A stretch of 42,138 bases of DNA, from the IMG/VR virus record IMGVR_UViG_2737471818_000002, positions 1 to 42,138 of that record; one strand, 5' to 3'. A program made the translations under genes and the position numbers. The DNA comes from a virus. Its lineage: Duplodnaviria; Heunggongvirae; Uroviricota; Caudoviricetes. The notes under the pieces are model-generated. The model was given only the letters and a program-made list of their open reading frames with translations, did no database searches and had not been told where the DNA came from. Positions 24,220 through 36,159 of this stretch are shown here, piece by piece (positions within the stretch are counted from its first letter, which is position 1; each line of letters starts with the position of its first letter).

Positions 24220-24657
24220 TCATCGAAGGCATTGCGTCCTGATGTATTCCTGCAGGTAGTTAACCTGCGCGGTTATCTTGTCGATTCCACTTCGGAGACG
24301 GTAATAATTGAGTTCAGCATCTGCTGTAAGTCCTGGGCTTTCTCCATCGCCCATGCCGCTGGCTCCGGTCTTTGACTTTGCACATGAGGCGGCGACTTGC
24401 AGCCGCTTACGCCCAGCAGAAACATCATCACGGAGACTTTCGATAGTCGCGTTAGCATCAGCAAGCTCCTTTGTGTATCTTGCGTCGAGTTCTGCTACAT
24501 CACGTTGACGCTTCCGCATGTCAGCGATGGTGGATGTGGCTTTGTCGCGCTGGGCTTTGTAGGTAATCGCGTTATCGCGGTAATGATTAACAGCCCATGA
24601 CAGGCAGACGATGACGCAGATAACCAGAGCGGAGATAATCGCGGTTACTCTGCTCAT
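24220..24657 (-). CDS. rz: Spanin inner-membrane subunit Rz (i-spanin); N-terminus lambda-like, C-terminus divergent
   Basis: 145-aa ORF; N-terminal TM helix [39 protein letters not shown] matches recalled lambda Rz; overlaps R stop. Confidence 0.85.
24273..24464 (-). CDS. rz1: Spanin outer-membrane lipoprotein Rz1 (o-spanin), embedded in the +1 frame of rz
   Basis: 63-aa ORF inside rz; signal peptide with lipobox (LLGVSGC) followed by Pro-rich segment. Confidence 0.65.
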
Positions 24658-25130
24658 ACCTCAATCTCTCTGACAGTTCCGCCTGCTTCCTTGAATTTTG
24701 CAATCAGGCTGTCAGCCTTATGCTCGAACTGACCATAACCAGCGCCCGGAAGTGAAGCCCAGATATTGCTGCAACGGTCAATTGCCTGACGAATATCACC
24801 GCGATCAATCATCGGCAAAGCGCCACGTTCCTTAATCTGCTGCAATGCCACAGCGTCCTGGCTTTTCGGAGAGAAATCTTTCAGGCCAAGCTGCTTACGG
24901 TAGGCATCCCACCAACGGGAAAGAAGCTGGTAACGTCCGGCTGCTGTTGATTTGAGTTTTGGGTTTAGCGTGACAAGTTTGCGAGGGTGATCGGAGTAAT
25001 CAGTGAATAGCTCTCCGCCTACAATGACGTCATAACCATGATTTCTGGTTTTCTGACGTCCGTTATCAGTTCCCTCTGACCACGCCAGCATATCGAGGAA
25101 CGCCTTACGTTGATTATTGATTTCCACCAT
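24654..25130 (-). CDS. R: Endolysin, lambda R-type lytic transglycosylase
   Basis: 158-aa ORF nearly identical to recalled lambda R ([35 protein letters not shown]...). Confidence 0.9.
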
Positions 25131-25437: not shown

Positions 25438-25969
25438 GTCTTACCCCCAATAAGGGGATTTGCTCTATTTAATTAGGAATAAGGTCGATTACTGATAGAA
25501 CAAATCCAGGCTACTGTGTTTAGTAATCAGATTTGTTCGTGACCGATATGCACGGGCAAAACGGCATGAGGTTGTTAGCGCGACCTCCTGTCACCCGCTT
25601 TCACGAAGATCATGTGTAGAATGCCGCAGCGTAACTATCACTGATGAATTCAGGACAGCCAGTGGCTACGGCTCAGTTTGGGTGTGGCGGTCGGTGCTGA
25701 ACTCCGACTTAATGACGATAGGCGTGTACCGACGCCTCGTTTTACTTCCTCCGCTTTCACGGCTTCACCCTAGACCAGCTTTACGAAATCCTCGTAAACC
25801 TAACCGCGGCAGATATGACCGGCACGGTGTGCCATATCACGGACCGGCGGGTGTCTCGTTCACCTGATTAACGCATCAGCCTGCGTATTCACCACAACGA
25901 TAAGAGCACTGCGCGGCACCTTTCACCAATTCCGCGAGGTCTGCGGGTTCAATGCTCTTACCTGTTGTG

Positions 25970-26015
25970 CAAACAAAAAAGCCACCGTTGCAACTTAAGA
26001 GTCACTAACGGCAGC
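25970..26015 (-). terminator. Candidate tR'-type terminator of the short late leader transcript
   Basis: GC-rich inverted repeat followed by UUUUUUGUUUG on the minus strand; downstream sequence matches the lambda post-tR' region as recalled. Confidence 0.4.
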
Positions 26016-26025
26016 TTACCCTCTA

Positions 26026-26055
26026 ATTATGGCTAAATGGCTAATTGCATGTCAA
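26026..26055 (-). promoter_or_regulatory. Candidate late promoter PR' (and qut region) overlapping the end of the Q gene
   Basis: Minus strand reads TTGACA, 18-bp spacer, CATAAT; the -35 lies in the last Q codons and the -10 just after the stop. Confidence 0.4.
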
Positions 26056-26551
26056 GGTTTTTAACAGCAACATGCTTAATTTTCTCAACACGTTTACGCA
26101 TTTTGAAAGCATTTTGCATTGGTTGGTACAAAACAAATAATGACGCTTTCAGGATGTCGTCAATTTCGTTTCTACAGGTTGCCAGTGAAGGTTTTCTCCA
26201 TCCCTCGCCACCACGTCCACACATCTTGCGTGGCTTTGCAGTCGCGTGATAGTAGGATGCAATTGCTCGCTTAGATGAACCATGAGCGTAGTAGCTGAGG
26301 AGGATGCCAAAGGCTTTCTTGTCAATGCACATGACGGAATCGACGACCTGAGAAATCAACATTCCATCATCATCATTGCACATTGGCCTTGTCATAACTC
26401 TTCCCGGCTCTACGCTCTCCATGAACTTCGCTATTACGCTGCTCATGCGCTTTTCCAGACGACCTGAATAAACCCATGCGCCCCACAGTTCAAGCCAGCC
26501 ATTCAGCCACTCATGCTGTTCTTTGGTGAGGTTTAGTTCTCTTATGCTCAT
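26033..26551 (-). CDS. Late-gene antitermination protein Q (QuuD-like)
   Basis: 172-aa ORF directly upstream of the lysis cassette; recalled similarity to DLP12 QuuD (SSVIAKFM...RPMC.DDDGMLISQVVDSV). Confidence 0.7.
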   Translation of the reverse strand: MSIRELNLTKEQHEWLNGWLELWGAWVYSGRLEKRMSSVIAKFMESVEPGRVMTRPMCNDDDGMLISQVVDSVMCIDKKAFGILLSYYAHGSSKRAIASYYHATAKPRKMCGRGGEGWRKPSLATCRNEIDDILKASLFVLYQPMQNAFKMRKRVEKIKHVAVKNLDMQLAI

Positions 26552-26736
26552 CGCCTTCCCTTTTTGCCTGGCGTTACCATCAGGACGCCGTTAACTATTA
26601 CGTGACGCTCACCTTTGCTGTCTCGGTTGTACTTGAGCACTGTTCCTCTTGCGCAGGAAAGCATCCTCGCCACTTCGGTCTGATTGCCTCGTGTCTGGAT
26701 AAGAAGCTCTGGTATCGTTTGAATTGTGGCGTTCAT
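26548..26736 (-). CDS. ninH: NinH-like protein
   Basis: 62-aa ORF; motif GNQTEVARML.C.RGTV.KY matches recalled lambda NinH. Confidence 0.65.
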   Translation of the reverse strand: MNATIQTIPELLIQTRGNQTEVARMLSCARGTVLKYNRDSKGERHVIVNGVLMVTPGKKGRR

Positions 26737-27095
26737 ACGTTCTCCAGTTCGGTGATTTTTATTCCAAGCCTTCCGCCTGGTACTTTCACACCACGAATTA
26801 CGCGAATGTCATCGAATTGCTCGTCGTCTTCCGCAAATCCGGCGTGGATAAGTGAGTCGAGTAAACCTTTCAGGATGTTATCGAGGTCGCGGCGGCGGGA
26901 GTCTGGAACGTCTGCGATGACTTTGATGCGGAGTCGTGATTTGGTGAAAATGTCTAACTTAAGTTGGCGGATGATTTGCTGAACGTCTTTTCGGTATTTC
27001 TGGCCTTTATCGCTGATGTAGTATTGACTTCCCCGTCTTCGCCAGTAGGTATTCACCGACGGCGGGTATGGAAGCACAAACTGATATTCGTTCAT
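26733..27095 (-). CDS. rusA: Holliday junction resolvase RusA
   Basis: 120-aa ORF; conserved RusA pattern (LPYPPSVNTYWRRR...RRRDLDN...K...D). Confidence 0.85.
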   Translation of the reverse strand: MNEYQFVLPYPPSVNTYWRRRGSQYYISDKGQKYRKDVQQIIRQLKLDIFTKSRLRIKVIADVPDSRRRDLDNILKGLLDSLIHAGFAEDDEQFDDIRVIRGVKVPGGRLGIKITELENV

Positions 27096-27382
27096 GACTT
27101 AATCTTCCCCTCCTTCAGCAGTATCGCCTGCGTCCTGATCACGCCTTCGAGGTGGTAAAGTCTGGCGTCTTTGTTGTCGAGGTTATGGGTGCGTCGGTCG
27201 ATTTCATCGTGACACGCGCTACAAGCCCATGCGCCGATCATGTCGTCAGGTTTCATTCCCGTTCCGCAAATTCCAGCCATCCGGTAATGTGCCAGAACTG
27301 TAGTTTCAGGATTTCCATTGCATATGCCGTAAATACGTACCTGGCATTCTCTTCCGCGCGCTTCTTTGCGTAGGTTAGCCAT
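27092..27382 (-). CDS. YbcO-like (DUF1364) nin-region protein
   Basis: 96-aa ORF; MANLRKEARGRECQVRI.G.CNGNPETTVLAH...CSACHDEIDRRTH matches recalled DLP12 YbcO. Confidence 0.6.
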   Translation of the reverse strand: MANLRKEARGRECQVRIYGICNGNPETTVLAHYRMAGICGTGMKPDDMIGAWACSACHDEIDRRTHNLDNKDARLYHLEGVIRTQAILLKEGKIKS

Positions 27383-27767
27383 GACTTCTCCCCCATTTCT
27401 CTTGGCATCTCCTCAACCACACTCGCATATTTTGGCTGGTAATATCGGTATGCTCTCCGCTGTATTCATTTTGTGAGTGCTTGCATCTCACATAAACAAA
27501 TACGGCAAGCAATGGATATGCGAATAACAAAATAAATAACAGAGCTGTAGCAACAGATACTTTCACAAAAAATGCAGGCAACTCTCTGACCTGATAGTCT
27601 GGAAAATCCAAGAATTCATCGATTATGTTGTTAGCAACATTGGTAGTTGCTATACATGCGACTGACAGACAATCAAAATAATTAAAGTCATATCCAGCCG
27701 CAGCAGCCCATGTTGGATTGTCTTGAAAATGTTTAAACGTTATTTGTCCGTATCGGCTAATCACCAT
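27375..27767 (-). CDS. Hypothetical membrane protein in AT-rich nin-region segment
   Basis: 130-aa ORF; one strongly hydrophobic helix (VKVSVATALLFILLFAYPLLAVFVYV); clearly lower GC than neighbours. Confidence 0.4.
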   Translation of the reverse strand: MVISRYGQITFKHFQDNPTWAAAAGYDFNYFDCLSVACIATTNVANNIIDEFLDFPDYQVRELPAFFVKVSVATALLFILLFAYPLLAVFVYVRCKHSQNEYSGEHTDITSQNMRVWLRRCQEKWGRSHG

Positions 27768-27942
27768 CGTCTTCTTCCTCGTACATTGAGCTATTCGGAT
27801 CGCTCATCAGTTCTGCACAGCAGTGCTCACACACGTGAACTTCCAGCACACGCAGCTTCTGACCGCAGTTAGCGCACGTTAAAGCTCGCTCGACGCTTTC
27901 TTTCTGGTATTGGAGGTATTGGGATAGGCTAAGCATTAACAA
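27757..27942 (-). CDS. ninF: NinF-like protein
   Basis: ESVERALTCANCGQKLRVLEVHVCEHCCAELMSDPNSSM matches recalled lambda NinF. Confidence 0.7.
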   Translation of the reverse strand: MLMLSLSQYLQYQKESVERALTCANCGQKLRVLEVHVCEHCCAELMSDPNSSMYEEEDDGD

Positions 27943-28873
27943 CCTCCATACAAACTTTCACGAATGCCGTTGCTACTTCTGCATTGATTGCGTTTCCATA
28001 TCCAATAATTCGCTGATCTTGATTGCGCTTTGCCATTCCTCCCAGTGTGGACTTGCCTCGTCCCAAGCTTTTGGCAATGCCATTAACCATCGGGAATGAG
28101 CCGGGTCTAACTGGACGATATTTTTCATCTCTACAGTAAAGCCAGTCTGCATCTCTCCAGAAGCCGTTAACCGGTAATGGGTACATAGCTTCACCGTCCC
28201 GGGAAGTTTCAAGCAGATTCTTGGGGTTCCGCTCTTGTCTTTTCCGCTGTAGCAATGCGTTGAACCTGTTGCATCGTTCGCTAAAGGAGTTTGCCATCCA
28301 GCTAGTCTCACGCATCCAGATAGGTTCTGAATTCCCCTGCGCGTTTCTGGCTGAAAGTTGATATTTGTCGTTGGAGTAGGCCACCCAATACAATCGCTGC
28401 CTGATGTGCGGAGAACCGAAGCCCGCAGCGCAAATATCGGTACCTGCAGAGGTGTAGTTCGCACCTTCCAAGTCAGTTTGTACAAGGTCGAGCCAAGCGA
28501 GGCCGTCTGCGCTTGCAACCTGTTCGCCAATAACGATGCCAGGATTGCATTTTTCAATAAGCCAGAAGAATGCCGGCCATAAGTGCCGCTCGTCATCAAC
28601 CCCTTTTCCTTTGCCTGCCGAGCTGAAAGGTTGGCATGGGCAACTTCCTGTCCAGACACTCTTGTTGTCTGGCCATCCTGCTTTTCTAAGTGCATAGCTC
28701 CAAACTCCGATTCCTGCAAAAAAGTGGTGCTGGGTAAATCCTCGCAAATCACCTGGTGTGACATCTTCAATACTCCTTTCATCTACATAACCGGGGGCAA
28801 TTTCTCCAGCGTCAATTAAGTTACGCAGCCATTGCGCTGCATACGGATCTATTTCGTTGTAATACGCAGTCAT
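27929..28873 (-). CDS. Orphan DNA (cytosine-5) methyltransferase
   Basis: C5-MTase motifs in canonical order: FAGIG (I), PCQPFS (IV), GEQV (VI), RQR (VIII), GYGNAI (X); start placed at the Met with GAGGA RBS; no adjacent restriction gene. Confidence 0.7.
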   Translation of the reverse strand: MTAYYNEIDPYAAQWLRNLIDAGEIAPGYVDERSIEDVTPGDLRGFTQHHFFAGIGVWSYALRKAGWPDNKSVWTGSCPCQPFSSAGKGKGVDDERHLWPAFFWLIEKCNPGIVIGEQVASADGLAWLDLVQTDLEGANYTSAGTDICAAGFGSPHIRQRLYWVAYSNDKYQLSARNAQGNSEPIWMRETSWMANSFSERCNRFNALLQRKRQERNPKNLLETSRDGEAMYPLPVNGFWRDADWLYCRDEKYRPVRPGSFPMVNGIAKSLGRGKSTLGGMAKRNQDQRIIGYGNAINAEVATAFVKVCMEVVNA

Positions 28874-28875
28874 CG

Positions 28876-29052
28876 TCATTTCCTCGCACGATGTCTTAGC
28901 CACCGGATATCCCACAGGTGAGCCGTGTAGTTGAAGGTTTTTACGTCAGATTCTTTTGGGATTGGCTTGCGTTTATTTCTGGAGCGTTTCGTTGGAAGGT
29001 ATTTGCAGTTTTCGCAGATTATGTCGGTGATACTTCGTCGCTGTCGTCTCAT
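28876..29052 (-). CDS. ninD: NinD-like protein
   Basis: [30 protein letters not shown] matches recalled lambda NinD; start overlaps the ninB stop. Confidence 0.6.
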
Positions 29053-29486
29053 GCCGCCCTGTCTCCCCATCGCGCTCTCCACTCCAGAGCCAGTCGCGCT
29101 TCGTCTGACCACTTAACGCCACGCTCTGTACCGAATGCCTGTATAAGCTCTAATAGCTCCGCAAATTCGCTTACACGCATCCTGCTGGTTGACTGGCCTA
29201 TTACCACAAAGCCATTCCCGGCAAGGTTAGGAACAACGTCCTGCTGCTTTAATGCTGCGGTAAACACACACTTCCAGCTTTCTGCATCCAGCCAGCGCCC
29301 ATGCCATTCAACCTGACGAGAGACGTCACCAAGGCAAGCCCAAAGCTTTCGATTCTGGTCTAAGCTGCGGTTGCGTTCCTGAATGGTTACTACGATTGGT
29401 TTGGTTGGGTCTGGAAGGATTTGCTGTACTGCGTGAATAGCGTTTTGCTGATGTGCTGGAGATCGAATTTCAAAGGTTAGCTTTTT
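29049..29486 (-). CDS. ninB: NinB (recombination-associated ssDNA-binding) protein
   Basis: 146 aa from [34 protein letters not shown]; near-identical to recalled lambda NinB. Confidence 0.8.
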
Positions 29487-29565
29487 CATGACTTCCCTCT
29501 CCCCCAAATAAAAAGGCCTGCGATTACCAGCAGGCCTGTTATTAGCTCAGTGATGTAGATGGTCA

Positions 29566-31017
29566 TCAGAATCCTCCTTTCTTCTTGGATTGCGGTTCCT
29601 CGCGTTCACGGCGGCGCATTTCAGCAGACTGTTGGTCTGTGTCATAAATAGCGCCATTTGCCTGAATGCAATACACCGTGCCGGTATTGCCATGACGGTT
29701 GAGACGAAGGATTAGTTCGGTTTCACCAGGTGGAACACTGTCATCAAAAGCACCTTCCCGATGGATCCCCACCCAATAATCGCAATCCTGTTCAATCTGC
29801 CCTGTATCGCGCGAGTCACTTGGTAATGGGCGTTTATTGGTTCGGCTTTCCAATGCGCGGTTAAGCTGTGTCAGAAGCACAACAACGCAATCAAGCTCTT
29901 TGGCAAGGTTCTTCAGTCCTTTGGTGATCATGCCGTATGCAAGGTCGTTGCGATCGGCCTTTTCAGCGGTCATTAGCGTCAGGTAATCGACCAGAATCAT
30001 GCCAACGCATCCTTTTTCTCGTTTGATTCGACGGCTTTCGCTGACGATTTGAGCCAGAGATAATCCCGGCGTGTCGTCGATGTAAAGCAGGTCGATTTCA
30101 CTCAAGCGATTGGCTGTTTCGATCGCCCTGTTGAAGTCACCATCGTAATCACCCTGATAGCCGTCATCAGCGTCATTTGTCGCCGGAAGGTAAAAAATAT
30201 TTGGGTTAACACCTGACTTCTGCCCTACCAGTTTTTCCAGTATCTGGTCACCTGGCATTTCAAGGCTGAACATCAGAGCGGGCTTTTTCTCATGCACTGC
30301 GCAGTTGATTGCCATCTGGCTGTATAGCGTCGTTTTCCCCATCTTAGGGCGAGCGCCAATGACAAACAGAGAGCCTTTCACCAGACCTTTCGGTGACAGC
30401 ATCCTGTCCAGCGATGGGATCCCTGTGCTCATTCCTCGTTGTTCGCCTGACGGGTCAAATCGCTTCTCAAGGTCGCTAACCCAGTCTTCCATGACCTCAC
30501 CAAATGAGCGAAGGCCGCGACGCGATCCGGTTTTTGCATGGTCTGTCAGTTGCGTGAAAATCGCCTGAATAGCTTCGTACTTCTGCGTCGCAGTCATTCC
30601 GTTGCGGGAATAGAGCAATTCCGTCGCTTCAGTCATGCGGTTGATGGCGTAGCGTTCCATTGCGGTTTCACGAACCTGCATTGCATAGGCAACGATGTTT
30701 GCTGCGCTTGGCGTGTTCTTTGCGATCTCAGCGATATAAGCAAAACCGCCAACAGACACCGTTAACGATTTGCGCTCCAGTTCATCGAAAAGCGTCAGGC
30801 CATCTACTGGCTTTTGCTCCCGGTGCATTCTGGTTATTTCTTCGAAAAGGATTTTGTGTGGTCGGCTGTAAAATGAATCGGGCTTCAGCATCGCCAGAAC
30901 TTTCTGGACGCGCTCACTGCTGTCATCATCCAGAAGCAATCCACCAATCACCGCCTGCTCTGCCTCGATGCTATGGGGCGGCGCATAAAAATTATCGGTC
31001 ATCGTGTTCACCCTCAC
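29566..31017 (-). CDS. Replicative DNA helicase, DnaB-like (P22 gene 12 type)
   Basis: 483-aa ORF; Walker A (GARPKMGKTT) and DnaB-family architecture; follows the initiator gene. Confidence 0.9.
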   Translation of the reverse strand: MRVNTMTDNFYAPPHSIEAEQAVIGGLLLDDDSSERVQKVLAMLKPDSFYSRPHKILFEEITRMHREQKPVDGLTLFDELERKSLTVSVGGFAYIAEIAKNTPSAANIVAYAMQVRETAMERYAINRMTEATELLYSRNGMTATQKYEAIQAIFTQLTDHAKTGSRRGLRSFGEVMEDWVSDLEKRFDPSGEQRGMSTGIPSLDRMLSPKGLVKGSLFVIGARPKMGKTTLYSQMAINCAVHEKKPALMFSLEMPGDQILEKLVGQKSGVNPNIFYLPATNDADDGYQGDYDGDFNRAIETANRLSEIDLLYIDDTPGLSLAQIVSESRRIKREKGCVGMILVDYLTLMTAEKADRNDLAYGMITKGLKNLAKELDCVVVLLTQLNRALESRTNKRPLPSDSRDTGQIEQDCDYWVGIHREGAFDDSVPPGETELILRLNRHGNTGTVYCIQANGAIYDTDQQSAEMRRREREEPQSKKKGGF

Positions 31018-32717: not shown

Positions 32718-33368
32718 ATGAAAACTCAATTGATGGGAGAGCGCATTCGCGCTCGGAGAAAAGAACTCAAGATCAGGCAGGCCGCACTTGGAAAGATGGT
32801 CGGCGTGTCTAATGTTGCCATATCTCAGTGGGAACGCTCTGAGACAGAGCCAAATGGAGAGAATCTTCTCGCCCTGGCTAATGCGTTGAAGTGTTCCCCT
32901 GACTATCTGATGAAAGGAGAGGAAAGTCTTTCAAACATTGCCTATCACAGTAGGCATGATCCAAGAGGGTCATTCCCTCTGATTAGCTGGGTGAGCGCAG
33001 GATGCTGGATGGAAGCTGTAGAACCATATCATAAGCGTGCAATAGATAACTGGTACGATACAACCGTAGATTGTTCAGAAGATTCGTTTTGGCTGGACGT
33101 AAAGGGTGATTCGATGACGGCTCCAGCCGGTCTTAGCATCCCTGAAGGAATGATAATACTCGTCGATCCTGAAGTAGAGCCGCGTAACGGGAAACTGGTA
33201 GTTGCAAAGCTCGAAGGAGAAAACGAGGCAACTTTCAAGAAGTTAGTTATTGATGCAGGCAGGAAGTTTCTAAAACCACTTAACCCACAATATCCGATGA
33301 TCGAGATCAACGGAAACTGCAAAATCATCGGCGTAGTTGTCGATGCAAAACTAGCAAACCTTCCATAA
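32718..33368 (+). CDS. c2: C2 (CI-type) prophage repressor with LexA-like autocleavage domain, P22 immunity
   Basis: 216-aa ORF highly similar to recalled P22 C2; N-terminal HTH and C-terminal S24 peptidase region (GDSM...K). Confidence 0.95.
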   Translation: MKTQLMGERIRARRKELKIRQAALGKMVGVSNVAISQWERSETEPNGENLLALANALKCSPDYLMKGEESLSNIAYHSRHDPRGSFPLISWVSAGCWMEAVEPYHKRAIDNWYDTTVDCSEDSFWLDVKGDSMTAPAGLSIPEGMIILVDPEVEPRNGKLVVAKLEGENEATFKKLVIDAGRKFLKPLNPQYPMIEINGNCKIIGVVVDAKLANLP

Positions 33369-33888: not shown

Positions 33889-34188
33889 ATGACAGTAGTC
33901 ATTACATATCTGGCTGACGATAACGCCAGAAATCGCCGCAGAGCACGCAGACAGGCTCAACGTGAACAGGCAATGCAAGAGCAGCGACTGGCGCGAAAGA
34001 TTGCGCTAAAGCTCTCTGGTTGCGTCAGAGCAGATAAAGCAGCATCACTCGGAAGCCTTCGCTGCAAGAAGGCAGAAGAAGTCGAGCGTAAACAGAACCG
34101 TATTTACTACCGCAAGCCACGCAGTGAAATGGGTGTGACTTGTGTTGGTCGCCAGAAAATGAAATTAGGCAGCAAACCACTTATTTGA
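33889..34188 (+). CDS. N: Antitermination protein N
   Basis: 99-aa ORF with GGAGGT RBS; N-terminal arginine-rich motif (NARNRRRARRQAQREQA); C-terminus YYRKPRSEMGVTCVGRQKMKLGSKPLI resembles recalled lambda N. Confidence 0.75.
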   Translation: MTVVITYLADDNARNRRRARRQAQREQAMQEQRLARKIALKLSGCVRADKAASLGSLRCKKAEEVERKQNRIYYRKPRSEMGVTCVGRQKMKLGSKPLI

Positions 34189-34513: not shown

Positions 34514-34576
34514 TCGGCCTTTATTTTTGGCATAAACAAGAGAATAAACACTGCACTTAATTATTTGAGGTTAGAT

Positions 34577-35047
34577 ATGACAAAATCATGGAGCGTACCT
34601 TTTCCTGAATCAGAAACTGAACATGAGGGAATGCCTGTTTTCTGGAGATTCCAGGCGACAGTTGAAGAAGATGGAATCAAAATATTCGCACTTCAATATA
34701 TAGCTTTTCATCAGACAGAGCATTATGCATGGTTGGTTCCTGCGCATTGGATTGTTGATTTTAAACCAGCACCAAATCAGTGGTTACAGGAATGGAAACA
34801 AAAGAGAAATAGATATGCAATTAAGAAAGTAGCAAAAAATGCAGAAAGATCTTTTGCATTCCCAACGAAGAAACTTGCCATTGAGAGTTTATTGCGCCGG
34901 AAGAAATACCATTTAATGAGAATCAAACAAGATTTGGCTGTTGTATCAACTCTTGTTGATGGGATGAAGAATATTGATACATCAACACCAGATATTGAAT
35001 ATAACTTTGGGCACAACCAAGAAACAGAAAATTGGGTATTTTATTAG
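34577..35047 (+). CDS. Hypothetical protein B of AT-rich early-left accessory module
   Basis: 156-aa ORF from ATG at 34577 with GAGG RBS; AT-rich; Trp/His-rich N-terminal half and basic central segment; no recognisable motif. Confidence 0.5.
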   Translation: MTKSWSVPFPESETEHEGMPVFWRFQATVEEDGIKIFALQYIAFHQTEHYAWLVPAHWIVDFKPAPNQWLQEWKQKRNRYAIKKVAKNAERSFAFPTKKLAIESLLRRKKYHLMRIKQDLAVVSTLVDGMKNIDTSTPDIEYNFGHNQETENWVFY

Positions 35048-35152
35048 TACGAGTAAGCACTATGTATTCATTCCAACGAGTGAATACACGGAGCAATGTC
35101 GCTCGTAACTAAACAGGAGCCGACTTGTTCTGATTATTGGAAATCTTCTTTG

Positions 35153-35178
35153 CCCTCCGATGTGAGGGCAATTTTTTT
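35153..35178 (+). terminator. Intrinsic terminator after the AT-rich accessory module
   Basis: GCCCTC-CGATGT-GAGGGC hairpin followed by seven T, ending 13 bp before the next start codon. Confidence 0.55.
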
Positions 35179-35190
35179 GACGGAGGATAT

Positions 35191-36159
35191 ATGAGTGAAG
35201 TAACAGATTTAGTTGTTATTGAAAAAGCAAATGCAATGACTGTATTTCAGTCTGCCGACCAGATTGAAGAAATCCTTCAAAAGGTTGAACGTGAAGTTAT
35301 GTCCTTTGTGCCTGATATCACAACGGCAAAGGGCAGAAAGGAGATCGCTTCTCTGGCGTATAAAGTTGCGCAGACGAAAACATATCTCGATGGTCTTGGC
35401 AAAGACCTTGTTGCTGAACTGAAGGAAATTCCAAAGCTAATTGATGCCAACCGCAAGACAGTGCGCGATCGCCTTGATGAACTGAAAGCCAAGGCGCGCC
35501 AGCCTCTTACTGATTATGAGGAAGAACAGGCGCGGATTAAAGCCGAAGAAGAAGCTAAGGCAGCAGCTGAAGCTCTCGCAAAGCAAATTGAGTCTGACCA
35601 TGAAATAGCGATTTTGATGGATCGCGAATTTGACCGCCAAAGAGAAGAGGCAAGACTCAAAGCGGAGCAGGAAAAGCGAGAGCATGAAGAACGCTTAAAA
35701 AGAGAAGCTGAAGAGAAAGCCAGAGCTGAAGCCGAAGCAAAGACAAAAGCCGAAATTGAAGCAGCAGCAAGGCGAGAAGCAGAAGCTAAGGCCGCAGCGG
35801 AACGTGCAGAGCGTGAACGCATTGAAGCCGAGCAACGAGCACAGCGCGAAGCAAAAGAGGCAGCAGAACGAGCTGAAAGAGAAAAGCAGGCGGCAATTGA
35901 AGCAGAACGCCGAAAAGCACAGGAGGAGGCTGAACGAATCAGGCGCGAGGCTGAAGCAAAAGAGCAAGCCAGAATAGCAGAAGAAAAAAGAATCAAGGAA
36001 GAAGAAGAGCGTAGAGCAAAGGATAAAGCTCACCGGAAAGAAGTAAATAACAAAATACTTGCTGACCTTATCAAGGTTGGCGCATCAGAAGATGTTGCTA
36101 AAAATATCATAACAGCCATCGTAAAAGGCGAAGTATTCGCAACAAAAATAACCTACTAA
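35191..36159 (+). CDS. Hypothetical coiled-coil protein with Ala/Glu/Lys/Arg-rich repetitive central region
   Basis: 322 aa from ATG at 35191 with GGAGGA RBS; about 200 aa of repetitive charged coiled coil; ordered N- and C-terminal regions. Confidence 0.5.
   Translation: MSEVTDLVVIEKANAMTVFQSADQIEEILQKVEREVMSFVPDITTAKGRKEIASLAYKVAQTKTYLDGLGKDLVAELKEIPKLIDANRKTVRDRLDELKAKARQPLTDYEEEQARIKAEEEAKAAAEALAKQIESDHEIAILMDREFDRQREEARLKAEQEKREHEERLKREAEEKARAEAEAKTKAEIEAAARREAEAKAAAERAERERIEAEQRAQREAKEAAERAEREKQAAIEAERRKAQEEAERIRREAEAKEQARIAEEKRIKEEEERRAKDKAHRKEVNNKILADLIKVGASEDVAKNIITAIVKGEVFATKITY

Follow-up and report, generated by a model that had tools for sequence, protein, structure and literature searches.

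The earlier note on this DNA described a 130-aa ORF between NinF and a YbcO-like gene. The ORF listing and Pfam assignments for the window (the whole 42,138-nt stretch that was analysed) agree, and place this gene, hereafter ORF130, on the minus strand (Table 1). Beyond ybcO, Pfam identifies RusA, NinH, and then Q. By coordinates, the final 11 nt of ninF overlap the start of ORF130, and the first 8 nt of ybcO overlap its end; the ORF130 stop codon, TAA, is contained in ATGGCTAA. Such overlaps, together with a Shine-Dalgarno (SD) sequence inside each upstream gene, form the layout expected for translational coupling, which we predict from the sequence here.

Table 1. Coordinates of ORF130, its neighbours, and associated sequence features in the window
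Feature	Position	Strand	Basis or remark
ORF130 CDS, 130 aa, ATG start	27375..27767	minus	ORF listing; phrog_2638 member, predicted single-pass membrane protein
ninF, 5′ neighbour	27757..27942	minus	Pfam NinF, E 2.4e-12
ybcO/DUF1364 (hkbD-like), 3′ neighbour	27092..27382	minus	Pfam YbcO, E 1.8e-44
Insert, 385 bp relative to the lambda/Sf6 ninF-ninG junction, ATGG at either side	27379..27763	minus	Junction comparison
SD GAGGAAG within the ninF 3′ end, for ATG 27765-27767	27774..27780	minus	Sequence reading
SD GGGGGAG within the ORF130 3′ end, for ybcO ATG 27380-27382	27388..27394	minus	Sequence reading
Codons for aa 9-35, most conserved block of the family	27663..27743	minus	Alignment of 45 sequences
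Codons for aa 64-93, transmembrane (TM) helix with central aromatic-Pro motif	27489..27578	minus	Hydropathy, AlphaFold2, alignment
Codons for aa 94-130, basic C-terminal tail, predicted cytoplasmic	27375..27488	minus	Charge counts, hydrophobic moment
tR2-like intrinsic terminator, between the helicase gene and ninB	29514..29537	minus	Terminator scan

We compared the junction in the window with those of L002, lambda, Sf6, CUS-3, and 611R6. In lambda and Sf6, ninG directly follows ninF, and relative to these phages the aligned sequences delimit ORF130 as a precise 385-bp cassette at the ninF-ninG junction, in keeping with the earlier description of an inserted gene. BLASTN homology to CUS-3 and 611R6 ends at 27382 and restarts at 27759-27765. 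The cassette reuses the ATG and SD inside ninF, which in other phages are used for ninG, roi, or an 89-aa ORF, and equips the gene after it with a new SD and ATG; in other prophages, the SD at the ORF130 end precedes the ninG ATG instead of that of ybcO. Since the cassette takes the start signals of the displaced gene and supplies replacements, translational coupling along the operon is predicted to be preserved.

The slot between ninF and ybcO is occupied by roi in CUS-3 and HK620, and by the 89-aa ORF in 611R6. The 3′ partner of the ORF130 cassette is ybcO here and in E2348/69, and ninG in other E. coli prophages. Of 50,697 phage records searched by tblastn, 16 contained the protein; lambda, P22, and Sf6 were not among these, which upholds the earlier claim that the lambda nin region has no counterpart and answers the comparison with lambda, P22, and Sf6 that the note had proposed. 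The gene is carried by 37 of 5426 complete E. coli genomes and by one of the 224 phage records that have the flanking nin genes. ORF130 thus falls outside the nin core and is a rare accessory gene of a P22-like prophage in a polymorphic slot between ninF and ybcO/ninG.

The low GC of the gene had also been pointed out, and we measured 0.397 for ORF130 against 0.48-0.52 for the flanking nin genes, with GC3 values of 0.366 and 0.47-0.57, respectively. ORF130 falls within the lowest 4.5-7.5% of 393-bp windows by GC across the whole 42-kb sequence, and because its GC3 is low, the bias goes beyond the hydrophobic amino-acid content of the protein. The other low-GC islands of the prophage are the gtrABC conversion module (Pfam) and immunity/early-left ORFs without an assigned function. 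Inside the Buttiauxella-type clade, dN/dS was 0.08-0.23; between the E. coli clade and the Buttiauxella-type homologues, pS was saturated at 0.78-0.90 while pN was 0.28-0.30. These substitution patterns indicate that ORF130 is under purifying selection.

Protein architecture and predicted topology

Hydropathy analysis identified a sole strongly hydrophobic segment, aa 64-93, with Kyte-Doolittle 19-mer values of up to 2.61 and a Hessa-type dG of -1.9 kcal/mol for aa 75-93 (family mean TM dG -0.15, 45 sequences), matching the single hydrophobic helix that the note had seen. The second-best hydrophobic segment, aa 33-49, has a dG of +5.1 and is too polar for spanning. We also considered a two-TM hairpin with the helix at aa 30-53 as TM1, and set it aside: the family mean dG is +7.9 kcal/mol, and the value drops below 2 in just four of the 45 members. 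An AlphaFold2 model built from the 45-sequence alignment (pLDDT 85.6, pTM 0.69) contains an uninterrupted helix from aa 60 to 101. One insertable segment and a charge bias mark ORF130 computationally as a bitopic inner-membrane protein, a predicted localisation. We are highly confident that ORF130 is a real gene and encodes a membrane protein.

Conservation across the 45-sequence alignment peaks in two places, aa 9-35 and aa 57-64. The former carries the motif I-T-F-K-H-F-x-D-x-P-x-W-A-A-A-A-G-Y-D-F-N-x-x-D-C-x-S and has the highest mean information of all segments (2.68 bits per column); within it, P18 and G25 are invariant, and F14, A21, Y26, and D32 are conserved in at least 90% of sequences. 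At the DNA level, this block keeps 77-78% identity to the Buttiauxella and SJ46 loci. A juxtamembrane block, E-V-R-E-L-P, is also conserved, and the centre of the TM helix reads AYPLL in ORF130 and YPF or WPF in its relatives. The C-terminal tail, with seven K/R against four D/E, ends in a moderately amphipathic helix (aa 108-129, hydrophobic moment 0.45-0.47) and shows the lowest conservation in the protein (1.1-1.45 bits). A few prophage copies carry premature stops, Q112* and C121*, and these fall only in this tail.

Over the 45 sequences, the 20 residues after the TM helix contain on average 4.4 K/R and 1.5 D/E, and the stretch before it 2.4 K/R and 4.0 D/E. Given this charge bias and the positive-inside rule, we moderately favour an N-out/C-in topology, in which the acidic N-terminal domain would be periplasmic and the basic tail cytoplasmic; the opposite topology is possible. 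About half of the family members have a single Cys in the N-terminal domain. Two observations count against N-out: a lone Cys would be unusual in a periplasmic domain, and N-tails of 63 residues are not commonly translocated unless a signal peptide is present.

The phrog_2638 family and its genomic contexts

ORF130 matched phrog_2638 with an E value of 6.8e-55, aa 9-127 aligning to positions 2-120 of the 120-position profile, and all 45 aligned family members, ORF130 included, match the same profile. Among 1.84 billion proteins, the family forms about 45 clusters at 50% identity in which length and architecture are kept; full-length homologues share 34-58% identity. In PHROGs v4, phrog_2638 bears no functional annotation, and RefSeq labels ORF130 "hypothetical protein". 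The libraries that we searched were Pfam, PHROGs, NCBIfam, PADLOC, PDB sequences, PDB folds, and BFVD, none of them dedicated to anti-defence. Pfam returned no hit for ORF130 at E ≤ 0.01, and its neighbours matched NinF, YbcO, RusA, NinH, NinB, and NinE; a Pfam scan of 45 relatives gave nothing meaningful, hits to LapA_dom, ATP-synt_C, and Kinocilin being sub-threshold TM-helix noise. No NCBIfam model matched ORF130, and PADLOC-DB v2 gave no hit to it at E ≤ 0.1. The sole PADLOC hit among the 45 family members, to a generic 4TM effector, had an E value of 0.03, which is at chance level. A profile search of PDB sequences found no homologue or solved structure, a ryanodine-receptor match at E 1.7 being due to chance, and fold searches of PDB and BFVD gave no specific match. 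An Rfam scan of positions 25500-30000 detected no RNA family at E ≤ 1. No paper on this gene emerged from a literature search that covered the PHROG identifier, the RefSeq accession, and membrane or defence topics in the nin region. The label "conotoxin" on the homologue of Yersinia phage P840 was treated as an annotation artefact.

Homologues with 55-58% identity lie in the nin region, directly upstream of YbcO or NinG, on three further prophage or viral contigs, one of them from Buttiauxella. On two of these three contigs, a 56-57-aa ORF at the NinF position, for which the Pfam NinF hit is weak or absent, overlaps the start of the homologue by 11 nt; on the third, about 140 nt separate the end of the upstream ORF from the homologue. 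Further afield, in Yersinia phage P840, the P1-like SJ46, contig L010, and Proteus phage PM-CJR, the gene belongs to densely packed clusters of early, replication, or recombination genes on one strand; it neighbours a recombinase and exonuclease VIII in P840, shares its surroundings with RdgC, Lar, and Dam on L010, and lies among helicase, exonuclease, nuclease, and primase genes in PM-CJR. The annotation of PM-CJR contains no integrase and no repressor, and this phage appears to be virulent. When we clustered the neighbours at 73 loci by BLASTP, no partner gene was conserved over the three genomic contexts; the recurrent neighbours were NinF/NinX/NinE/YbcO/NinG in lambdoid phages and, elsewhere, P1-like hypotheticals, Dam, an exonuclease, and DUF551-like proteins. 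The phrog_2638 module is common to lambdoid, P1-like, and apparently virulent siphophages. ORF130 is at present a hypothetical phage gene of the ordinary kind whose anatomy is well defined, and it represents a compact family with a confidently predicted structure and a striking invariant motif that spans temperate and apparently virulent phages of Enterobacterales, prophages of EPEC E2348/69 among them.

Expression and candidate roles

A consensus scan, which could miss weak promoters, detected no minus-strand sigma-70-like site and no intrinsic terminator beside ORF130. A promoter-like plus-strand site at 27402-27431, antisense in ORF130, was discounted, the scan having returned six sites in total against 6.0 expected by chance. 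Because the tR2-like terminator lies upstream, we assign ORF130 to the nin segment of the early-right operon, which depends on N; the Sf6 annotation has tR2 at the equivalent position, and the window encodes an N-like arginine-rich ORF at 33889-34188. We infer that ORF130 would be transcribed only within the N-antiterminated early-right (pR) operon, so that the protein would be made after induction or infection and not in a quiescent lysogen. The absence of an own promoter and terminator, the overlaps, the position of the tR2-like element, and the homologues in early or replication modules all point to lytic rather than lysogenic expression, and we regard delayed-early lytic expression as probable. 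A weak internal or upstream promoter that is active in lysogens is possible; a candidate is the site at 29047-29018, before ninE and the methylase, which scored 9/12 in the scan.

We propose that ORF130 would insert in the inner membrane as a single-pass protein, that its conserved N-terminal motif and kinked TM helix would bind an envelope component of the host or of an incoming phage, and that it would thereby block DNA entry or a membrane machine used by a competitor while the cell commits to lysis. The two peaks of conservation and the Pro motif inside the TM helix speak for a specific interaction surface. Our confidence in the explanation as a whole, a functional accessory plug-in cassette that encodes an early lytic inner-membrane protein, is evenly balanced. 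The role within it is put forward with considerable doubt: early superinfection exclusion or envelope takeover, like T4 Imm/Sp, is suggested solely by analogy, from early expression, membrane location, and accessory status, and no homology in the searched libraries ties the family to a function. Nothing in PDB or BFVD matched the N-terminal motif F-x3-P-x2-A-x3-G-Y-x5-D-C-x-S together with the Pro-kinked TM helix. Tentatively, phrog_2638 may represent a new class of phage effectors that are made early and act on the envelope by binding a conserved inner-membrane machine of Enterobacterales. If true, this would add a new mechanism of superinfection exclusion or a new inhibitor of membrane-based defence; a membrane target, if found, could bring to light a new mechanism of exclusion, takeover, or counter-defence.

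Other roles have to be weighed against this proposal. ORF130 might instead be expressed in the lysogen as a protective gene, whether an Abi effector, a membrane toxin, or a prophage exclusion factor, and depolarise or block the membrane upon infection. Such a role would suit a small membrane protein encoded by a low-GC accessory gene in a variable slot; its rarity among E. coli genomes fits that of conflict genes, and the prophage has its remaining low-GC islands in the conversion module and the unassigned immunity/early-left ORFs. Against it, ORF130 is without its own promoter and terminator and overlaps both neighbours in an N-dependent operon, PADLOC is empty for ORF130 and 44 relatives bar the one chance-level match, and lysogen protection makes no sense in a Proteus phage without an annotated integrase, where relatives occupy early modules. 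A toxin in particular would have to account for a conserved 60-aa extramembrane domain that is unlike type I toxins. We consider this explanation improbable. Exclusion of secondary phages during the lytic cycle is possible, and an Abi protein or toxin that protects the lysogen is less likely. Counter-defence, in which an early protein neutralises a membrane-embedded defence effector, for example of an ion-channel or TM-effector system, also strikes us as improbable. Its occurrence in temperate phages and in one apparently virulent phage would fit, and the conserved intramembrane motif suggests, as a prediction, helix-helix binding. However, the methylases and Lar nearby are common to any nin or early region, which makes their association weak, no neighbour is conserved over the three contexts, and Pfam, PHROGs, NCBIfam, PADLOC, PDB, and BFVD revealed no similarity to a protein of known function.

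The consistent replication and recombination surroundings (NinB, YbcO/NinG, and RusA here, and those in PM-CJR, P840, and L010) and the basic, amphipathic C-tail would be compatible with a protein that, like phi29 p16.7 in function, tethers or organises phage DNA replication or recombination at the membrane, the tail binding DNA or the replication or recombination proteins. Yet that tail is the least conserved part of the protein and is cut by stops in some prophage copies, conservation is highest in the N-terminal domain, on the predicted non-cytoplasmic side of the membrane, and the gene is a dispensable, rare allele in a slot that otherwise has unrelated genes; a tether is quite unlikely. 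We give slightly less credence still to an early takeover inhibitor of an envelope process such as division or peptidoglycan or lipid synthesis, which would resemble lambda Kil or the bitopic SPO1 gp56 in function and be toxic on over-expression. Inhibition of division is common among small early prophage proteins, and single-gene lysis proteins, of which the conserved Pro in the ORF130 TM helix is reminiscent, bind membrane enzymes; a membrane protein from the early operon whose TM motif and ectodomain are conserved would fit this pattern. Pfam, PHROGs, PDB, and BFVD gave no homology to such inhibitors, however, and the sequence offers no target. Finally, the premature stops in a few prophage copies and the RefSeq label might suggest a chance ORF or a decaying remnant. 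The conservation data effectively refute a non-functional ORF130: length and architecture are maintained over the clusters of the family and purifying selection is strong. The confident AlphaFold2 model and the precise translational-coupling signals read at both ends argue in the same direction.

Comparison with known systems

Several familiar classes of small phage and bacterial proteins are a poor fit to ORF130. Type I toxins such as Hok, TisB, and Ldr are shorter than about 60 aa and have their own promoter and a cis or trans antisense RNA as antitoxin, whereas ORF130 has 130 aa, no promoter, and no Rfam family. As for a holin or antiholin, ORF130 lies in the nin region upstream of Q and has no holin match in Pfam or PHROGs; downstream of Q are ORFs of 145 and 158 aa (24220-25130), where close relatives have lysis genes. 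By Pfam, ORF130 matches none of the named lambdoid nin families (NinA-H, NinX, YbcO, RusA, and others).

Lambdoid morons, as defined by Hendrix and colleagues and exemplified by HK97 gp15 and lambda bor and lom, bring along a promoter and a terminator, and the prophage expresses them. ORF130 is moron-like in being a low-GC extra gene between genes that are adjacent in related phages; in contrast to morons, it showed neither element in the consensus scan and sits in an early lytic operon, overlapping its neighbours. The early membrane protein p16.7 of phi29, which organises phage DNA replication, has an N-terminal TM segment and a conserved, C-terminal DNA-binding domain. ORF130 resembles it in size (about 130 aa), single TM helix, early position among replication genes, and a basic region for possible nucleic-acid contact, but conservation is lowest in its C-tail, and no homology between the two was detected. 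T4 Imm and Sp are small, dispensable inner-membrane superinfection-exclusion proteins that are produced early in lytic infection; their topology and size are unlike those of ORF130, and the likeness is a functional analogy only, no sequence or fold similarity having been detected. Nor did we find homology to the characterised Sie proteins (T4 Imm/Sp, P22 SieA, and HK97 gp15), phrog_2638 being the sole PHROG match and the BFVD and PDB fold searches giving nothing specific.

The nin region is a classic mosaic of mostly unexplained accessory genes, and ORF130 shows the addition of a gene unusually cleanly. In position, in the ATG and SD embedded in ninF, and in the ATGGCTAA start of ybcO/hkbD, it is like roi (HK022, HK620, and CUS-3) and the 89-aa ORF of 611R6. 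Roi itself differs, being a soluble DNA-binding/antirepressor-like protein of about 240 aa with an unrelated sequence, whereas ORF130 is a membrane protein; all three genes are dispensable and form cassettes in the mosaic of the lambdoid nin region.

The ninF-ybcO slot and its cassette

The window is a P22/Sf6-like (Lederbergvirus-type) prophage, with IME10, CUS-3, Sf6 and HK620-type phages as the nearest phage matches over 20000-42138. Region 1009-5295 looks like an argU-type attachment site and a serotype-conversion module. The early-right operon occupies the minus strand in the order helicase, terminator, NinB, NinE, methylase, NinF, ORF130 (the 130-aa ORF under study), YbcO, RusA, NinH and Q, with ORF130 overlapping ninF by 11 nt and ybcO by 8 nt.

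Positions of features in the window, in the ORF130 protein model (aa) and in related loci
Feature	Position	Strand	Remark
tRNA-Arg(CCT)	1009-1083
Integrase-sized ORF	1209-2402		after tRNA-Arg(CCT)
gtrA/gtrB/gtrC O-antigen glucosylation module	2556-5295		low GC
P22-type tailspike	5327-7219		head-binding domain; after gtr module
RusA, NinH, Q	downstream of YbcO	-
YbcO/DUF1364	27092-27382	-
ORF130	27375-27767	-	ATG start, 130 aa
NinF	27757-27942	-
C5-cytosine methylase	27929-28915	-	328 aa; Pfam DNA_methylase, phrog_363, PADLOC DruM/MTase_II-like
NinE	28876-29112	-
NinB	29049-29507	-
tR2-like terminator	29537-29514	-	terminator scan
DnaB-type helicase	29566-31017	-
cI-like repressor	32718-33368		upstream of N-like ORF
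N-like ORF	33889-34188	+	99 aa; arginine-rich motif NARNRRRARRQAQREQ
Early-left ORFs	34565-35047; 35137-36159	+ / +	low GC; downstream of N-like gene
Model: short beta-hairpin	aa 2-9
Model: two short helices	aa 11-16, 18-23
Model: helix	aa 30-53
Model: long helix including hydrophobic segment	aa 60-101
Model: C-terminal helix	aa 108-129
Stop-bearing copies, loci L033 and L034	5001-5390
Stop-bearing copy, locus L038	513-902

An earlier note had proposed comparing the nin region with lambda and Sf6; in both, ninG directly follows ninF and ORF130 is absent. Junction alignment of ORF130-bearing prophages with ...GAAGAAGACGATGG|CTAAACCAGCG... gave an exact 385-bp insert (window 27379-27763) bordered by ATGG at either end, and BLASTN homology to CUS-3 and 611R6 stopped exactly at 27382 and restarted at 27759-27765. 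The ORF130 start is the same ATG used by ninG (lambda, Sf6), roi (CUS-3) and an 89-aa ORF (611R6); it sits within the last ninF codons, and its Shine-Dalgarno (SD) sequence is the ninF-internal GAGGAAG. The 3' end of ORF130 (...TGG GGG AGA AGT CAT GGC TAA) holds the SD GGGGGAG and the ATGGCTAA that opens ybcO or ninG. The partner gene is ybcO in the window and E2348/69, ninG in other E. coli prophages and roi in Klebsiella phage phiKp_30. Given the junction alignment and these alternative partners and occupants, the earlier note was right to call the gene inserted, and more precisely ORF130 is one allele of a polymorphic slot. In three further contigs an ORF130 homologue (55-58% protein identity) directly precedes YbcO or NinG within the nin region, and in two of them the NinF-position ORF overlaps its start by 11 nt, as in the window. 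ORF130 is rare, being present in 37 of 5426 complete E. coli genomes and in 1 of 224 phage records having the flanking genes.

What the earlier note had observed in this ORF between NinF and the YbcO-like gene proved right on every point, the lower GC included: GC was 0.397 and GC3 0.366, against 0.48-0.52 and 0.47-0.57 in the flanking nin genes, within the lowest 4.5-7.5% of the window's 393-bp windows. Further low-GC islands coincide with the gtr/tailspike and immunity/early-left regions, places where accessory genes are expected.

We made several other observations around the slot. All alternative genes after ninF use one ATG within its last codons, and ybcO and ninG alike open with ATGGCTAA (lambda, L105 2030-2040; Sf6, L104 4279-4286; L015 and L014 junctions); these short stretches in common resemble the recombination "boundary sequences" of mosaic lambdoid genomes. 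Upstream of the cassette in the EPEC E2348/69 prophage (L001, NC_011601.1 735687-737423) stand a short NinF copy, the remnant of an HNH endonuclease and another NinF, and RusA downstream has an internal stop, all signs of rearrangement and decay near the slot. Between ninE and ninF, where the window has the methylase, CUS-3 and 611R6 carry a NinX-like ORF, and window homology to both is broken at 27939-28870. The methylase, probably an orphan enzyme serving anti-restriction, is a second cassette replacement, independent of that of ORF130.

A family of predicted single-pass membrane proteins

ORF130 is a real gene, already listed in RefSeq as a hypothetical protein (WP_000237093.1 in EPEC E2348/69) and belonging to an existing PHROG of unassigned function, phrog_2638, which 45/45 aligned family members matched. 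A search of 5.8 billion proteins found homologues in only 12 clusters, and when 1.84 billion cluster representatives were searched exhaustively by HMM, 45 matched at E <= 1e-3, nearly all 99-134 aa and aligned end to end. Against 55-58%-identical homologues from other prophage or viral contigs (one a Buttiauxella genome), pS was 0.78-0.90, with synonymous sites saturated, and pN 0.28-0.30; inside this Buttiauxella-type clade, dN/dS was 0.08-0.23. Among species-representative genomes, the close family is restricted to Enterobacterales (Dryocola, Pseudocitrobacter, Xenorhabdus, Escherichia, Morganella). Three IMG/VR E. coli prophage copies carry premature stops (Q112* twice, C121* once) that remove the C-terminal helix alone, leaving the N-domain and hydrophobic segment intact. 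The 41%-identical ORF53 of Yersinia phage vB_YenS-P840 (L003 3998-4357) is labelled "conotoxin" in GenBank, almost certainly a spurious annotation transfer to a small Cys-containing protein.

The AlphaFold2 model improved from pLDDT 69 with 10 sequences to pLDDT 85.6 and pTM 0.69 with 45. Conservation is focused at four sites. The aa 9-35 block, I-T-F-K-H-F-x-D-x-P-x-W-A-A-A-A-G-Y-D-F-N-x-x-D-C-x-S, averages 2.68 bits per column, with P18 and G25 invariant and F14, A21, Y26 and D32 at least 90% conserved (45 sequences); the juxtamembrane block aa 57-64, E-V-R-E-L-P, reaches 2.25 bits; the membrane helix has a central aromatic-Pro motif (YPL/YPF/WPF) followed by F-W; and the C-tail conserves basic character, not sequence. 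The single strongly hydrophobic helix expected from the earlier reading was recovered at aa 64-93. Helix 30-53 has a mean dG of +7.9 kcal/mol, against -0.15 for the hydrophobic segment, and in most members is too polar for a membrane crossing, so the family is predicted to be single-pass. The 20 residues after the hydrophobic segment average 4.4 K/R and 1.5 D/E and the stretch before it 2.4 and 4.0 (45 sequences), so the positive-inside rule predicts a cytoplasmic C-tail and a periplasmic, conserved acidic N-domain. An N-tail of 63 residues is seldom translocated unless it has a signal peptide, which counts against the latter.

Expression timing and wider contexts

A consensus scan of the region found no promoter-like site or terminator flanking ORF130 on the minus strand, and the total of sigma-70-like sites equalled chance expectation; one, TTGGCA-18-CATATT (9/12; 27402-27431, plus strand), lies antisense within the 3' end of ORF130. 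Because ORF130 has this layout, overlaps both neighbours with SDs inside the upstream genes as expected for translational coupling, and follows the tR2-like terminator in a prophage with an N-like gene, probably an N-type antiterminator, we infer a delayed-early gene, silent in the repressed prophage. The two early-left ORFs match phrog_1636 and phrog_1376, both without assigned function, and had no Pfam match; the 340-aa protein contains a very long, TolA-like charged E/K/R/A-rich stretch.

Wider contexts agree with delayed-early expression. Among 135 IMG/VR loci, 80 of them fetched, three recurred: the lambdoid nin slot; in P1-like plasmid-prophages (SJ46, RCS47), a conserved early block of genes for hypothetical proteins; and varied siphophage early, replication or recombination clusters. 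The family gene adjoins Dam in P840, shares one contig with RdgC, Lar and Dam, and is flanked by an exoribonuclease and a nuclease/primase in Proteus phage PM-CJR, whose annotation includes no integrase or repressor. As no neighbour was conserved across the three contexts among 73 loci, the protein seems to work alone.

Candidate roles

Pfam, NCBIfam and PADLOC models gave no match for ORF130 and none meaningful for its 45 relatives, PDB sequences none for the family, and literature searches no paper on ORF130 or phrog_2638. With nothing known matching, we turned to anatomy, which describes a dispensable, compositionally foreign protein, predicted to be an early product with an inner-membrane anchor. 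Constraint on it is strongest in the extramembrane motif and in the helix within the membrane, a pattern that suggests specific binding to another protein at the envelope. We tentatively rank first early superinfection exclusion or envelope takeover, functionally like T4 Imm/Sp. Counter-defence against a membrane-based immunity system is less likely, and to the same degree so is a lysogen-expressed Abi, toxin or exclusion factor of the kind raised earlier, against which stands the anatomy of a gene probably silent in the repressed prophage. We consider it unlikely that ORF130 resembles phi29 p16.7 in tethering replication or recombination to the membrane, since the basic tail shows the weakest conservation in the protein and is cut short by stops in some copies. 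Inhibition of cell division or envelope synthesis is slightly more doubtful still, and a non-functional ORF highly improbable.

The likenesses to T4, phi29, SPO1 and HK97 proteins are functional analogies; where testable (PHROGs, fold search), homology was negative. What our work contributes is a precise layout of the cassette, a definition of the family with its motif, a confidently predicted structural model with no match in the structural libraries searched, and an argument for a lytic-cycle rather than a lysogen-expressed gene. The anatomy of ORF130 is not that of a moron; it belongs with the mosaic accessory genes of the lambdoid nin region and the small early phage membrane proteins.
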